Made by a program: the position numbers and the translations under genes | Shown: one piece after another, positions 1 to 40,158 of the stretch | How the letters are laid out: each line of letters starts with the position of its first letter | Numbering within the stretch: position 1 is the first letter of the stretch | The notes under the pieces: generated by a model | The model's input: the letters and a program-made list of their open reading frames with translations, nothing else | What the model was told of the DNA's origin: nothing | The model's database searches: none | From: a virus | Strand: one strand, 5' to 3' | DNA length: 45,610 nt | IMG/VR virus record: IMGVR_UViG_2853968202_000001 | Coordinates: 1-45,610 of that record

Positions 1-92
1 ACTACTACTACTACTAGAAAGTAGTAGTGTAGTGTGTACACAGCAGGTACACTCTTTGGGAAAACCTAAGTGCCTGTGTACACACTGTGTAC
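1..92. repeat. Terminal direct repeat, left copy (identical to 45519-45610)
   Basis: Read directly: ACTACTACTACTACTAGAAAGTAGTAGTGTAGTGTGTACACAGCAGGTACACTCTTTGGGAAAACCTAAGTGCCTGTGTACACACTGTGTAC occurs at both window ends. Confidence 0.95.
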
Positions 93-93
93 A
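33..93 (+). promoter_or_regulatory. Cluster of three TGTGTACA(CA) palindromic boxes upstream of the RHH gene (candidate operator)
   Basis: TGTGTACACA at 33-42 and 75-84, TGTGTACA at 86-93. The last box ends 6 nt before the ATG at 100. The boxes are self-complementary. Confidence 0.45.
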
Positions 94-99
94 TAGACG

Positions 100-27992: not shown

Positions 27993-28014
27993 ATCTCAGC
28001 CCGTGGTCAGAGTT

Positions 28015-28293
28015 TCACTTGTCCGTCGGAAGTAGGCGTTCGGCCTCGAGGTTCCAGAGGCGACCGACCAGCAGGAACACGAGCGCCGTGAACAGCCCGT
28101 AGTAAGGCGGGGCGACTGCCGCAACCCCCTCAAACGTGAGCGAGAGGGAGATCACCGACCAGAGAACGACCAAAATTAGCGCAACAACCTTCGGGACCGT
28201 CTCAGTCTCATCCTGCGGCATCAGTGCCCTCCAAAGTCCGACAGCCTCGATTTTCGCGCGCTCGTACGACGGAGTGTGTGGTTTGGCAGACAT
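28015..28293 (-). CDS. Small membrane protein, two TM segments (92 aa)
   Basis: ATG start. VVALILVVLWSVISLSL and LFTALVFLLVG. Confidence 0.6.
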   Translation of the reverse strand: MSAKPHTPSYERAKIEAVGLWRALMPQDETETVPKVVALILVVLWSVISLSLTFEGVAAVAPPYYGLFTALVFLLVGRLWNLEAERLLPTDK

Positions 28294-28302
28294 AGGTCAT
28301 CC

Positions 28303-28563
28303 TCAGTCCGTGAGTCCGCCGACGATCTGGTCCGCTACGGGGATCACCGCCCCCATCGCCACCTCGAACGATCCTGGTTCTGGCTCCTCGCCACGAGCCG
28401 CAACCAAGACACCAGCGATTGCACCAATTGCCAGCGTCCGACTAAATTTGCGTGGCTTAAATTCCTTCTCGTCGTTTAAGACTGCGTGAGCGTATCCCGA
28501 AACGGCATACGCAGCGCCCAAGACGACGTACAGTGCAAGCATCACCGCCTTATTTTCTGCCAT
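28303..28563 (-). CDS. Small membrane protein (86 aa), first gene after the 28.6-29.1 kb gap
   Basis: ATG start. AVMLALYVVLGAAYAV and LAIGAIAGVLVA. Confidence 0.6.
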   Translation of the reverse strand: MAENKAVMLALYVVLGAAYAVSGYAHAVLNDEKEFKPRKFSRTLAIGAIAGVLVAARGEEPEPGSFEVAMGAVIPVADQIVGGLTD

Positions 28564-28973
28564 GATTGCATTGAAAGTCTTCGAACCGCAGTACGGAAAG
28601 GTGGGGAGGCGGACTGGCTGATGAGGATCAGTTCGCGGCAGGAGGTCGCTCGAGAGAGATCCTCGCTTTCGCTCGGGCTCTCAAACGAACCGGCAGATCC
28701 TGAGTTGTCCCCAGGGCACTGCCGGCCTACCCGCACCGCGGACTCGCTGACTCGTAGCGCGTAGCGCTTAGACCGAAGAAGATGAACAATCGAAGAACTC
28801 CTGTCCAGGACACGACGTCCGAACGCTTGCCGACGGCAGCGTCACGTACCGTGTCAGTCGTGTACCAGCCCTCGAGTACAACGAGAAACTCACAGCGCTC
28901 TATCAGAGCGCTCGGGTATCCTCAGCCAGCTATGCTCGAGCGCAACACGAGCAGGGAACTGACTTCACCGGAA

Positions 28974-29029
28974 ACCGGAGCCGGGAGTCGAACCCGTTTG
29001 ACCTGGCCCATTGGTGCCAGTACTCCGGC
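28974..29029 (-). ncRNA. tRNA-like element: acceptor stem + D-arm + T-arm, with no anticodon arm (56 nt)
   Basis: Minus strand reads GCCGGAG-TA-CTGG-CACCAATGGG-CCAG-GTCAA-ACGGG-TTCGACT-CCCGG-CTCCGGT. It has a 7-bp acceptor stem (one G-U), a 4-bp D stem with GGG in the loop, and a consensus TTCGANT T-loop. One A-G mismatch closes the T stem. Confidence 0.4.
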
Positions 29030-29109
29030 GACGTCCGCAATCCCCTCGGGCATCGAACGATAGGATACGATCGGTTAGCCGAGCCACGGCGCCGTCATCG
29101 GAGAGGATG

Positions 29110-37267: not shown

Positions 37268-37827
37268 CAGACCCGCGCACCTCCGTTACCGGTGAACGCG
37301 TCGAGCGTCGCCTGCGACGAGTCCGCCTCTACGTCCGGGGACGGGAACTCGAGCGGTTCGGTGTCGTTGCCCCAGCGCTGGTTGGTGTGGTAGGTGCCGT
37401 GGTCAGACTTGTCGACCGGACCGACGTTCGATGGGCGGTTGTCCCACGGAATCTCGTTGTCGTGGTGGACGTCCATATCCGCGACCGCATCGAAGCCGTA
37501 CTCCGAGACGGCGAGCAGGCGGTGGACGTAGCAAATCTTGCTGACGCGCTCGTCGCCTTCCCAGAGTTTCGTCACCCAACACTCGTACGGATGATTTTCA
37601 TGAAGCGTCCGCATCTTGACGCGCTCGACGCGGTTCGCCTCAGCGGCCGCCTCCACGCCCGCCTTCCAGTTCTCGCGTGTCTCGATTTCGTGCCGGTTGA
37701 GCCAATCTGAGATGGTGCCGTTGGAACAGTTGAAGTGGTCGGCGATCTCCCGCGTCGTCATCTCGCGGTCGACGTACAGGTCGCGGAGTGTCTCCTCGTC
37801 GCGGTAGGCACGCTCCGGCACTGTCAC
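37267..37827 (-). CDS. HNH endonuclease with an N-terminal HTH (about 186 aa)
   Basis: MTTREIADHFNCSNGTISDWL is the HTH. DVHHDNEIPWDNRPSNVGPVDKSDHGTYH is the HNH motif. GTG at 37827 (GTGA overlap) is preferred over the TTG at 37863. Confidence 0.75.
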   Translation of the reverse strand: MTVPERAYRDEETLRDLYVDREMTTREIADHFNCSNGTISDWLNRHEIETRENWKAGVEAAAEANRVERVKMRTLHENHPYECWVTKLWEGDERVSKICYVHRLLAVSEYGFDAVADMDVHHDNEIPWDNRPSNVGPVDKSDHGTYHTNQRWGNDTEPLEFPSPDVEADSSQATLDAFTGNGGARV

Positions 37828-38195
37828 TGCCCGTCGCCTCCGTTGATATGCTCCTCGAGCCAATTGAGCTCGTACTCGAGGACGTCCTCGCCCATCTCCG
37901 TGATCGCGTAGTTGTTCGTCCGCCGGTCGCGCTGCCCCTTCTCGACGAGGCCATAATCGACCAGCCTATCAAGGTTCGGAAAGAGTCGGCCATGCAACAG
38001 CTCCTCGCCGTAGTAGGTCTCGGCCTCGCGCTTGATCCCAAGGCCGTACCGGTCCTGCTGGGCGATCGTGGCGAGACAGCGGACTTGAAACTTCGTCAGG
38101 TCGGCCGCAATCGCTTGAATGTCCTCGTCCTCTGAGTTTCTAGTGCTGTGCGACGTGGCGTTGCGCTTATCTGTGTTGTTGTCGTCTGTTTGCAT
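37824..38195 (-). CDS. PadR-family transcriptional regulator (123 aa), first gene of the 38.2->34.8 kb operon
   Basis: RYGLGIKREAETYYGEELLHGRLFPNLDRLVDYGLVEKGQRDRRTNNYAITEMG is the PadR wHTH signature. Confidence 0.8.
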   Translation of the reverse strand: MQTDDNNTDKRNATSHSTRNSEDEDIQAIAADLTKFQVRCLATIAQQDRYGLGIKREAETYYGEELLHGRLFPNLDRLVDYGLVEKGQRDRRTNNYAITEMGEDVLEYELNWLEEHINGGDGQ

Positions 38196-38227
38196 GGTTG
38201 CAGGATTGCAGGATTGCAGGATTCGGA
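38196..38227. repeat. 8-bp tandem repeat (GGTTGCAG GATTGCAG GATTGCAG GATTCGGA) abutting the PadR start codon
   Basis: Read directly. Two exact and two degenerate units begin at the base next to the ATG (38195). Confidence 0.8.
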
Positions 38228-38507
38228 GCCGATTCTCGCTCCGGATTAGTGTCTGTGACCGGCGATCGGTCGGGGCGCGCTAGGACCTGGACAGTTGCAG
38301 CGGGCCCCGACGTAGATCGCAAGCGGCTGGTTGTTCGTTCGACACGATACCCTACTAAAGTGACGCGCACCGTTTCGGAGAGGATACACAACAGTAATAT
38401 GCTGTTAGAAGTGCTGAACGCTGCTGTAGGCAGCCATTTACGAAGTCGATTTTGGGTGTGTTGTGTCATCCTTGATGTTGTATGCCGACGCGAAATTACC
38501 GCGCCAG

Positions 38508-38726
38508 TTATAATTCTGCCAAATGGCTTTCAGCGGTGCCTAGTGTTTGGCCGGATTTCTTCCAACCGTCCTCCACTTCGTCACTGTGTTCATCGACATA
38601 GTCCTCGAGAGCTTCGATGAGGACATCTGTCCGGTTTATATCGGAATCTGGGCTAGACCGTGCATGGACGATTGCGTCCAAGTCATTTTTGAGCCCATTT
38701 GGAATTCGGAACGAGGTTGTCGGCAT
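38508..38726 (-). CDS. Ribbon-helix-helix (CopG-like) protein (72 aa)
   Basis: ATG at 38726. TSFRIPNGLKNDLDAIV ... NRTDVLIEALEDYV. Confidence 0.7.
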   Translation of the reverse strand: MPTTSFRIPNGLKNDLDAIVHARSSPDSDINRTDVLIEALEDYVDEHSDEVEDGWKKSGQTLGTAESHLAEL

Positions 38727-38735
38727 ACGAATTCC

Positions 38736-38822
38736 TGTAATGCGGCAATTCACATAAATGTAATGCAGCAACTCAGTAATTCCGTCGGTGGAATGAAGTG
38801 CATTGGCTTAATACTGTAATGC
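38736..38822. promoter_or_regulatory. Three TGTAATGC boxes in the divergent RHH-RHH intergenic region (candidate operators)
   Basis: TGTAATGC at 38736-38743, 38759-38766 and 38815-38822. The first two continue as (G/A)GCAA. AT-rich context. Confidence 0.55.
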
Positions 38823-38827
38823 AAGAG

Positions 38828-39058
38828 ATGACCGACGAAGACAAACTGAAGACGCACTCTTTTCGCGCCAATGAGGACACAGTCGAATACCTGGACTGGC
38901 TCATTGACCAGAAGAATGCCCAGCTACCGCCAGGATCTGATGAAAGAATTAGCCGTAGTGACGTCCTCAGAGAGTGCATCAACGATGTAATCGAAGAGCT
39001 TGAGGACGAGGTTGATGTGGGAAACTCAACCAGTCAGAAGATGATGACGGCTGATTAG
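38828..39058 (+). CDS. Ribbon-helix-helix (CopG-like) protein (76 aa; alternative ATG 38819)
   Basis: HSFRANEDTVEYLDWLI ... SRSDVLRECINDVIEEL. Divergent from the RHH gene at 38508-38726. Confidence 0.7.
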   Translation: MTDEDKLKTHSFRANEDTVEYLDWLIDQKNAQLPPGSDERISRSDVLRECINDVIEELEDEVDVGNSTSQKMMTAD

Positions 39059-39087
39059 GCGGAACTCACATACGACACACACTCTCT

Positions 39088-40158
39088 CTATGATGCGTTC
39101 GCCAGTAGCTCCAGCTGAATCGGTACCTCGAGATTCTCGTCGATGACTTCGTACTCTGCCCATCTGTTTTCTCCGTGCTGCCTGACGAGATCGTACTCTA
39201 CCAGTTTCGATAGGTAGTCGTTCACCCGTCGCCTCGAGACAGGGTCGTGATCTCGATCGGCGTAGATCGCGGACCCATGAGTCTCGTACAGTGAGTGGAG
39301 CCGCGCGCCATCGACGAGATTGGCGTCGGCGTACCGAAGGAGTTCATAGATCACACAGGGGCCGAACGGTAGGCTCCGGAGATTCGTCTCTCGGATCTTC
39401 GTACGTGCGCGGCCAAACGCATCTCGGATATCGTGCTCTCGGATCCGGCTATGGTCTCGTTCTTCGGCGAACTCCGCCGCAGACAGCAGCGACTGGATCC
39501 CATAGCGCGCGACGCCGGCGACTTCGTCGGCGATCCACTCCAGTTGTTCATTATGGATGACGCCGGGCTCGAGGCCATGCTCAGCACGGTGCTCGAGAAT
39601 ATCCGCGAGTTCGTCGACAGCGTATCGTTCGAACTCGATCTGCGATTTGAGCGAGAAGTAGTTTTGAAGCTCGTCATCGAGGCGGGCCAGCCACTCTCGA
39701 GGTTCATGGACGATCGCGATGACCGAGAGCAGCGGAATCTCGTATAGATCGCGGAGGACCTTCAGGTCGCGGACTGTTTCGGCTTCGTCGAGGATCACGA
39801 CGTAGGGCTGGTCAACAATGCTCTCGAGAGCGTCAACCAGCTGGTCGGCTGGCGAGTTTGGCCGCACTGCGGCATCGACCCGATGCTTTATCGCGGCTTC
39901 GTGGAGGATCGCGCAACGTGTGTTGCTCGAGTTGATCAATGTCCAATCGATGCTGTAGTCACGAAATTCGCGGCGGAGAACGTGTCGAGCGGTCGTTGTC
40001 TTTCCGACACCCGATGGGCCATAGATCAGCACGTCCTCGCCGCGCTGACCTCTCGTTGCCGGCTCGAGAGCTCGCGTGAGTTGCTCGCACTCACTATGCC
40101 GATGGGGAACCTGTTCCGGGAGCCGCTCGTCGAGAAACACCCATCGTTTGGTAATCAT
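39088..40158 (-). CDS. orc1: Orc1/Cdc6-type replication initiator (AAA+ plus C-terminal winged helix, 356 aa)
   Basis: LPHR-type N-terminal motif (VPHRHSECEQL). Walker A GPSGVGKTT. Walker B VVILDEAE. Winged-helix-like C-terminus. ATG 40158 preferred over GTG 40218. Confidence 0.85.
   Translation of the reverse strand: MITKRWVFLDERLPEQVPHRHSECEQLTRALEPATRGQRGEDVLIYGPSGVGKTTTARHVLRREFRDYSIDWTLINSSNTRCAILHEAAIKHRVDAAVRPNSPADQLVDALESIVDQPYVVILDEAETVRDLKVLRDLYEIPLLSVIAIVHEPREWLARLDDELQNYFSLKSQIEFERYAVDELADILEHRAEHGLEPGVIHNEQLEWIADEVAGVARYGIQSLLSAAEFAEERDHSRIREHDIRDAFGRARTKIRETNLRSLPFGPCVIYELLRYADANLVDGARLHSLYETHGSAIYADRDHDPVSRRRVNDYLSKLVEYDLVRQHGENRWAEYEVIDENLEVPIQLELLANAS

Follow-up and report, generated by a model that had tools for sequence, protein, structure and literature searches.

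Do two small genes transcribed back to back decide between carriage and lytic growth in a tailed virus of haloarchaea, or are they ordinary regulators of early transcription? The locus that raises this question occupies about 550 bp (38508-39058) of IMG/VR record IMGVR_UViG_2853968202_000001, a viral genome analyzed here over its whole length of 45,610 bp (the window). An original prediction, made from the letters of the sequence, held that the two genes encode ribbon-helix-helix (RHH) proteins, that the spacer between them carries three copies of one box, and that the arrangement follows the logic of the lambda CI/Cro switch. The observation was confirmed and its interpretation as a switch was partly supported, with comparative evidence strengthening it considerably. 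The best overall explanation of the region, to which we assign a probability of roughly 0.55, is that it is an early-gene/immunity switch cassette.

The two RHH genes and their shared control region

Both open reading frames (ORFs), 38726 to 38508 and 38828 to 39058, were confirmed and flank a short intergenic region.

38508 to 38726, minus strand: minus RHH gene, 72 amino acids (MPTTSFRIPNGLKNDLDAIV...NRTDVLIEALEDYV), an ORF with homologues in the same synteny
38828 to 39058, plus strand: plus RHH gene, 76 amino acids (...KTHSFRANEDTVEYLD...SRSDVLRECINDVI...GNSTSQKMMTAD), start set by relatives
38727 to 38827, no strand: divergent control region (spacer), 101 bp, under purifying selection

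The order orc1, plus RHH, spacer, minus RHH and PadR was kept in three other loci, a 56-kb replicon of Natrinema pallidum (L001) and two contigs from Logan (L002 and L003). A Natrinema pallidum strain with the record CP171783.1 carries the cassette as well. The minus RHH protein was 68-78% identical to its homologues in three loci of equal synteny, and the plus RHH protein was about 89% identical to its L001 counterpart. The minus gene is the partner in the "Arc/Cro position" upstream of the leftward gene block, and the plus gene is the candidate maintenance or immunity repressor. An upstream ATG at 38819, from which the plus ORF would encode 79 amino acids, lies within the third box as the original prediction had pointed out; in the relatives this ATG is not in frame with the gene, which rules it out as the start codon, and the conserved start is thus 38828 (M-T/A-D-(D)-E-D-K).

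The RHH assignment required profile iteration since neither protein had a match in a direct Pfam search and PHROG matches, to Arc/CopG-like repressors, were weak. A family profile searched against 1.8 billion representatives recovered 25 small acidic relatives, and 9 of 23 family members matched Pfam RHH_1. Alignment of the window family with its distant members by hhalign gave a probability of 99.4% (E 2e-21), and six of the 14 distant members were RHH_1 proteins. Among solved structures, the family profile matched TTHA0139 (5ytp, 7.8e-07), NikR (1.8e-04), CopG (4.8e-04), and pRN1 ORF56 (6.2e-04). An AlphaFold2 (AF2) model built from 23 sequences had a predicted local distance difference test (pLDDT) score of 83.5, with helices at residues 10-23 and 32-46 and an extended N-terminus (residues 1-9); a first run with a four-sequence alignment was poor (pLDDT 62.6). 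The best Foldseek matches of the model were RHH proteins, TTHA0139 (probability 0.99) and then VapB, ParD, PrpA and Reg576, with weak E-values. The profile searches and the confident model together identify both window proteins as predicted RHH DNA-binders, as originally claimed. The two are paralogues with an identity of 35% (E 1e-07). When they are aligned to NikR and ORF56, T-S-R falls in the DNA-facing register of both, and this identical register suggests that both paralogues read the same boxes. No relevant match to either protein was detected by tblastn among 50,697 phage records, and a scan of genome contigs with the plus-type profile gave no match.

No Pfam domain was detected in the plus RHH protein beyond the RHH core, which is followed only by a short conserved C-terminal tail, GN...AD. 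This tail (39023-39058) has the form G-(N/K)-x(5-8)-(T/A/S/K/M)-A-D-COOH and is common to many lineages, being present also in the plus-type proteins of L001, L008, L010, L011, L012, L014 and L015 (the loci are described below). Examples include GNSTSQKMMTAD, GNPRARAAPMAD, GNRNRATIKAD and GKSNPAIATAD; another RHH subgroup terminates in AQATN. This C-terminal tail could act as a degron or as a peptide on which a partner docks.

Conservation points to the spacer as a selected regulatory region. Its identity between loci was 90-97%, whereas third codon positions in the genes on either side were 48-68% identical, which is the pattern expected of purifying selection. The box TGTAATGC occurred exactly three times in the window, at the originally noted positions 38736, 38759 and 38815, always on the plus strand and always in the spacer. 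Chance would give 0.27 copies, and a count of three was reached in none of 100 shuffles; variants with one mismatch occurred elsewhere at chance levels (6 observed, about 10 expected). The first two boxes are spaced 23 bp apart and their extension, also noted originally, proved to be a 17-nt direct repeat, TGTAATGC(G/A)GCAA(T/C)TCA. GC content at 38-39 kb was 0.52 vs. about 0.60-0.65 across most of the genome.

38736 to 38751, plus strand: putative operator O1, two 8-bp-phased units, TGTAATGC and GGCAATTC
38759 to 38774, plus strand: putative operator O2, two 8-bp-phased units, TGTAATGC and AGCAACTC
38815 to 38823, plus strand: putative operator O3, a single pseudo-palindromic box, TGTAATGCA
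38753 to 38758, minus strand: TTTATG, candidate TATA box for the minus gene, spanning -32 to -27 relative to its ATG (38726)
38786 to 38814, no strand: nearly invariant block CGGTGGAATGAAGTGCATTGGCTTAATAC, with one variable position, C38807

The boxes thus form two double-unit sites and one single-unit site. O1 lies at -10 to -25 from the ATG of the minus gene, between the TATA-like element and the start, and is invariant in all four loci; another locus, L015, has CGCAATAC followed by TGTAATGC at the same position. O2, also invariant in the four loci, lies at -33 to -48 on the TFB-recognition element (BRE) side, so that the TATA-like element is sandwiched by the two sites. Only the window has a third O2 unit, AGTAATTC (38775-38782), which falls in the sole variable patch of the spacer (38775-38785). 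O3 is 5-13 nt upstream of the plus-gene ATG and reads TGCAATGC in L001 and L002; a single box occupies a comparable place before the plus gene in L014 and L015. Because TGTAATGCA is pseudo-palindromic, it would suit a single RHH dimer. The phased pattern GYAAYNNNGYAAY had five matches in the window (0.34 expected), all in the spacer or over the PadR start, and its matches in L001 were in the same two places.

The hexamer TTTATG is conserved in the relatives, with equivalents at -25 to -34 in L004, L008 and L015, and its consensus alone makes it a candidate TATA box of the minus gene. Its distance from the ATG would imply a leaderless or near-leaderless minus mRNA. The promoter of the plus gene is probably contained in the nearly invariant block at 38786-38814. 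An 8-bp inverted repeat, GGAATTCG/CGAATTCC, that the original prediction placed around the minus-gene start does exist and was discarded. Twenty inverted-repeat pairs occur within 651 bp, this one among them, and its arms in the relatives read GAAATCCG or GGAATCCG vs. CGAATTGC, without compensatory change; this lack of conservation makes it probably a chance occurrence.

Recurrence of the pair and exchange of the cassette

Pairs of divergent RHH genes, each with a spacer of about 100 bp and its own repeated boxes, recurred in unrelated haloarchaeal elements (L004, L008/L009, L010, L011, L012/L013, L014 and L015). Plus-type RHH genes were detected in L004, L005, L010, L011, L014 and L015, each divergent from an operon, and integrases were present in L004 and L005. 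In L014, a viral contig from IMG/VR, SWIM and a convergent orc1 are also present. The cultured Natrinema thermotolerans A29 maintains L008/L009, a tailed provirus, as a plasmid. The replicon (L009, CP031301.1, "plasmid unnamed4", 49,411 bp) encodes a large terminase, a portal, a protease-like protein, a minor tail protein, ParA and an integrase, and has the PadR, RHH pair and orc1 layout of the window.

The sequences of the boxes varied with the type of the adjacent RHH protein. The motif TGYAWTRC had 27 matches in the five spacers that lie beside a plus-type RHH with an x-T-x-S-F-R strand (window, L001, L003, L014 and L015, which represent three independent lineages), vs. none in the remaining approximately 74 kb of the same loci and none in the spacers of pairs with other beta-strands. 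Plus-type proteins with an R-T-R strand (L004, L010 and L005) were paired with GTCATVC boxes; CCAWTGG was enriched in the spacer of L011 and TAGAATGG in that of L008. Since box sequence co-varies with the adjacent RHH beta-strand across independent lineages, the boxes appear to behave as RHH operators. The window and L015 also shared the complete layout, which runs from the partner ATG through a two-unit site, a TATA-like element (-27 to -33), a second two-unit site and a single box to the plus ATG.

The first 95 bp of the window (1-95) are repeated at 45516-45610, which gives a unit length of about 45.5 kb, and the genome is circular, terminally redundant or circularly permuted. Among its predicted products are a tape-measure protein, a portal, a large terminase, a ParA ATPase (1309-2109), Orc1/Cdc6, PadR, an HNH/helix-turn-helix (HTH) protein and a SWIM protein. 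The portal was 55-56% identical to those of Humcor1, an induced provirus (PMC7911831), and HJTV-4. The regulatory backbone (SWIM, orc1, a lone plus-strand regulator and a leftward block led by PadR) matches that of BJ1 of the Graaviviridae. We take the window virus to be a temperate-type, Graaviviridae-like tailed haloarchaeal virus. The ParA-type ATPase and orc1, without a detectable integrase, suggest an episomal carrier state of the plasmid-prophage type; BJ1 has an integrase (PMC2194725).

As originally described, the minus RHH gene is directed towards PadR and the leftward block, and the plus RHH gene towards orc1, with which it is convergent. The leftward block beyond the minus gene spans about 35 kb and includes the large terminase, portal and tape-measure genes. 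The genes downstream of the minus RHH encode PadR, the HNH/HTH protein, DUF7344 and proteins without an assigned function, and the plus gene appears to be the lone rightward gene within the block. Within the otherwise uniform leftward genome, the AT skew is flipped at 28000-29100, where little is coding-like apart from two small minus-strand ORFs (28015-28293 and 28303-28563), whose hydrophobic products could be holin-like or membrane proteins.

37824 to 38195, minus strand: PadR-family regulator (Pfam PadR, 3.3e-13), first recognizable gene of the leftward (early) block
38196 to 38472, minus strand: conserved non-coding block of about 280 bp, between minus RHH and PadR
39088 to 40158, minus strand: orc1/cdc6 (Pfam Cdc6_lid and AAA_16), convergent with the plus RHH gene

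The flanks of the cassette were conserved between elements whose RHH genes are unrelated. The gap between the minus RHH gene and PadR is 312 bp and non-coding (38507-38196). Most of it is taken up by the conserved block, which was 84-90% identical to L001 (10240-10516) and 84.5% identical to L008 (6047-6320), the N. thermotolerans provirus-plasmid with a different RHH pair. The block therefore moves with PadR and not with the RHH cassette. PadR itself was 62% identical to the L008 protein and 41% identical to that of BJ1, and Orc1 was 67% identical to its L008 homologue (67-69% when L001 is included). Between these flanks, the RHH pair, the spacer and the boxes of the window and L008 are unrelated. 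By analogy with phages, the swapping of an RHH/operator cassette between conserved flanks resembles the mosaic pattern of immunity regions.

The position of the cassette also recalls known immunity genes. BJ1 ORF20, a phiH-repressor-like winged-helix protein, is divergent from PadR, with orc1 and SWIM upstream (PMC2194725). The imm gene of phiH1 is a small gene with a constitutive leaderless transcript, divergent from the early lytic T1-T3 promoter (PMC6210493). Because the slot is shared with BJ1 ORF20 and phiH imm, the plus RHH gene lies where related viruses keep their immunity functions. A relationship by descent between phiH Imm and the RHH proteins was rejected since Imm is a winged-helix protein, and the plus RHH appears instead to be a non-orthologous replacement of the winged-helix immunity genes.

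The switch reading and its alternatives

In the switch that we propose, the two paralogous RHH proteins would be transcribed divergently from the shared 101-bp control region, and each pseudo-palindromic box of 8-9 bp (TGYAWTRC(A)) would bind one RHH dimer, with cooperative binding at adjacent units in 8-bp phase. Occupancy of O1 and O2 would block TBP, TFB and RNA polymerase at the leftward promoter and turn off the minus RHH gene and probably also read-through into the early block led by PadR. O3 would serve auto- or cross-repression of the plus gene. The plus-type RHH would be the primary reader of the operators, in a position like that of Mnt or CI, and the minus RHH, which heads leftward transcription, would compete for the same sites in a position like that of Arc or Cro. 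We infer the promoter positions, the pairing of proteins with boxes, the antagonism, the bistability and the role in lysogeny from the sequence and its comparison. Confidence declines along this chain. It is very likely that the proteins bind the boxes and probable, at a somewhat lower level, that they control the divergent promoters, but for the final step to a lysis/lysogeny or immunity switch the chances are about even.

The main competitor is the possibility, which we regard as the less probable, that the RHH proteins are ordinary autoregulated early regulators with a temporal or homeostatic role, like SvtR of SIRV or AvtR of AFV, and that no bistable switch exists. The RHH and operator evidence fits this explanation equally well, and most characterized RHH proteins of archaeal viruses are gene-specific regulators without a role in lysogeny (PMC5569661). 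Several findings weigh against the switch in the same way. Neither tblastn with three haloarchaeal integrases nor Pfam on the ORFs of the end regions revealed an integrase in the window, so that a lysogenic state is argued only from the relatives and from ParA and orc1. The conserved block that precedes PadR could serve its operon as promoter/leader; PadR and the genes downstream may thus have a promoter of their own, and the cassette might control only itself. Partner composition differed between lineages: the divergent partner in L014 and L015 is a different type of RHH, L005 has no divergent partner at all, and the two partners in L008 differ in their beta-strand residues and share a spacer with two box families. 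The variation in L014, L015 and L005 implies that a logic of paired antagonists is not a constant of the family. No consensus TATA was found at -27 of the plus-gene ATG at 38828, and the TTAATA at -20 to -15 is too close to be a TATA box. The close family is rare, with only three close loci among 5.8 billion clustered proteins, and residues 1-9 of the AF2 monomer are coil and not strand, which is expected for an RHH monomer and is no proof of the fold.

Four observations favor the switch cassette over simple autoregulation. The cassette occupies the slot of the immunity genes of BJ1 and phiH; it is exchanged between conserved flanks in the mosaic manner of immunity regions; it recurs in temperate elements that bear an integrase or ParA; and the plus gene alone opposes some 35 kb of leftward genes, an orientation typical of maintenance repressors.

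A replication origin or copy-control region for orc1, in which the repeats would be iterons or resemble origin recognition boxes (ORBs) and the proteins would be CopG-like copy regulators, is improbable. The spacer is AT-rich and adjoins orc1, the module occurs on plasmid-like replicons, and pRN1 ORF56, a CopG-like copy regulator, was among the PDB matches. The boxes, however, follow the RHH type and not Orc1, which excludes the ORB/origin reading: Orc1 was 67-80% identical among the window, L001 and L008, yet the boxes of the window and L008 are wholly different, and RHH pairs with boxes were detected in L004, L010, L011 and L015 with no orc1 nearby in the available sequence. Moreover, orc1 is convergent with the plus gene and not co-transcribed with it, and no long ORB-type repeats or G-strings were found in the region. 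That the RHH proteins are antitoxins or centromere-binding partition adaptors of the ParG/omega type, as the VapB and ParD fold matches, the presence of ParA, and the arrays of short repeats that Omega and ParG bind could suggest, is very improbable and was rejected on gene architecture, since there is no co-transcribed toxin, no co-oriented ORF adjoins either RHH gene (next to the plus gene comes the convergent orc1, and beyond the minus gene a 312-bp non-coding stretch precedes PadR), and ParA (1309-2109), which has a downstream ORF of its own, is separated from the pair by about 8 kb across the circular junction.

Other elements near the cassette may add further layers of control.

38480 to 38489, no strand: left arm GTATGCCGAC of a perfect 10-nt inverted repeat, right arm GTCGGCATAC at 38719-38728
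38197 to 38218, minus strand: three tandem copies of CCTGCAAT, 8-bp-phased GCAAT/GCAAC units abutting the PadR ATG

The 10-nt repeat brackets the entire minus RHH gene, its right arm includes the start codon, and both arms are invariant in the four loci. In both the minimum free energy and the centroid fold, the minus mRNA is closed by this helix (z = -3.1), suggesting that translation of the minus RHH is controlled by pairing of the 5' and 3' ends of its mRNA. The tandem CCTGCAAT is tentatively an extra RHH site or the product of simple repeat slippage, and only a single unit is present in L001 and L008. Because L008, with its different RHH pair, shares the TGCAACCATGCAA part, some of the signal reflects a coding or leader constraint. 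By analogy with the T1 leader and Tant of phiH, the conserved block may contain an early promoter and a structured leader or antisense target. RNAalifold gave 81 pairs for the block, five of them compensatory, from only three sequences; a compensated hairpin (CCGGAGC...GCTCCGG to CCGGGAC...GTCCCGG) lies just upstream of the PadR ATG, and an Rfam scan of 37800-39300 gave no match. A 100-amino-acid ORF at 38469 to 38167 was rejected as a gene, being basic and Arg-rich with a conservation that reflects that of the DNA.

The longest orc1 ORF starts at GTG 40218. The more probable start is ATG 40158 (MITKRWVF...), where homology to orc1 of BJ1, L008 and L002 sets in. The stop codons of plus RHH and orc1 are 29 bp apart (39059-39087) and no T-run terminator was found there on either strand; convergent transcription could thus interfere mutually. 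Such interference has reportedly been seen for the phiH repressor gene.

Precedents and meaning

The closest precedent is the immI region (Mnt/Arc) of P22, followed by F55 of SSV1, rather than lambda CI/Cro. Arc and Mnt are RHH proteins with divergent, overlapping promoters. Like the window genes, they are two small homologous repressors arranged divergently around a short operator/promoter region, in which Mnt is the lone maintenance gene and Arc the first gene of the opposing operon. The immI region differs in that it controls the antirepressor ant and is a secondary immunity region; no Ant-type domain was detected by a Pfam scan of the window genes downstream of the minus RHH. The promoters here are also of the archaeal TATA/BRE type, and the 8-bp-phased TGYAWTRC operators are unlike those of Arc and Mnt. 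The immI region is highly variable among P22-like phages (PMC8022706).

F55 is a small dimeric RHH protein that binds tandem 8-bp ATAGATAG repeats over the BRE and transcription start site (TSS) of early promoters, binds its own promoter, keeps the lytic genes off and maintains lysogeny (PMC5569661, PMC10123103). The 8-bp-phased units of the window, which are putative binding sites, flank a TATA-like element in a way that recalls the F55 sites over the BRE and TSS. F55 is, however, the single regulator of a crenarchaeal spindle virus without a paralogous divergent partner, has sites over four promoters and acts with the host RadA; host, virus family and box sequence all differ.

The lambda comparison of the original prediction holds for logic only: divergent regulators flank three operator clusters over two promoters, and the lone gene faces away from the lytic block. 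CI and Cro, however, are HTH proteins and not paralogues of similar size, and CI carries a C-terminal domain sensitive to RecA; the plus RHH, by contrast, has 76 amino acids with a short tail and no S24 peptidase-like domain. The likeness to MetJ concerns site geometry only. One MetJ dimer, also RHH, occupies each 8-bp palindromic box, and tandem boxes, spaced at 8 bp as are the pseudo-palindromic TGYAWTRC units, are bound cooperatively; MetJ is a cellular, corepressor-dependent metabolic regulator without a divergent partner.

The L-region of phiH and phiCh1 (RepR; imm, T1-T3 and Tant) and BJ1 ORF20 share the slot, the geometry and a small DNA-binding gene with the window (PMC6210493, PMC2194725). 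In each, the regulator is divergent from an early lytic promoter that leads, through a long leader, to a PadR-like gene; the phiH T1-T3 leader is about 150 nt and is targeted by the antisense RNA Tant (PMC6210493). Their regulators are winged-helix proteins and single, not an RHH paralogous pair. In SNJ2, a temperate haloarchaeal virus (Pleolipoviridae) with an Orf4-Orf7-Orc1 system, a small repressor likewise adjoins a viral Orc1/Cdc6. SNJ2 Orc1/Cdc6 takes part in the lysogeny-induction switch, and the authors suggest that Orc1 of tailed haloviruses may have this role too (PMC10123103). The SNJ2 repressor, however, is a winged-helix protein that controls the integrase gene, and neither an Orf7-like anti-repressor nor an integrase was identified in the window. 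An involvement of orc1 in the window switch is pure conjecture by analogy. A bolder proposal, which we put forward speculatively, is that exchangeable double-RHH immunity cassettes are bistable switches in which three beta-strand residues are matched to 8-bp-phased operators, that swapping of cassettes creates heteroimmune types, and that the GN-x(5-8)-AD tail is an induction sensor (a degron or docking peptide), possibly coupled to Orc1 as in SNJ2.

Tailed haloviruses are the most commonly isolated group, and we know of no operator-level switch defined in them outside the winged-helix repressors of phiH and phiCh1. Older transcript work exists for phiH. According to a 2023 paper, control of lysis and lysogeny in archaeal viruses had been studied only in SSV1 and SNJ1, to which that paper added SNJ2 (PMC10123103). 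In our literature searches, we found no account of a cassette of this kind for tailed viruses of haloarchaea. The novelty that was originally claimed for a two-RHH switch thus stands within the tailed haloarchaeal viruses and not beyond them, since the arrangement is classical in P22 and an RHH lysogeny repressor is known in SSV1 F55.

The locus is a compact system of about 550 bp in which the protein (the T-S-R plus-type RHH), the DNA motif (TGYAWTRC) and the sites (O1, O2 and O3) can all be named, and natural specificity variants, among them the R-T-R proteins with GTCAT boxes, could serve as built-in controls. If the proposed pairing is true, it would yield a recognition code for RHH proteins of archaea, a way to mark immunity groups among haloarchaeal proviruses and small orthogonal repressor/operator parts for haloarchaeal genetics. 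If the bistable double-RHH reading is also true, the cassette would be, among archaeal Caudoviricetes, the first immunity switch of this type to be defined.

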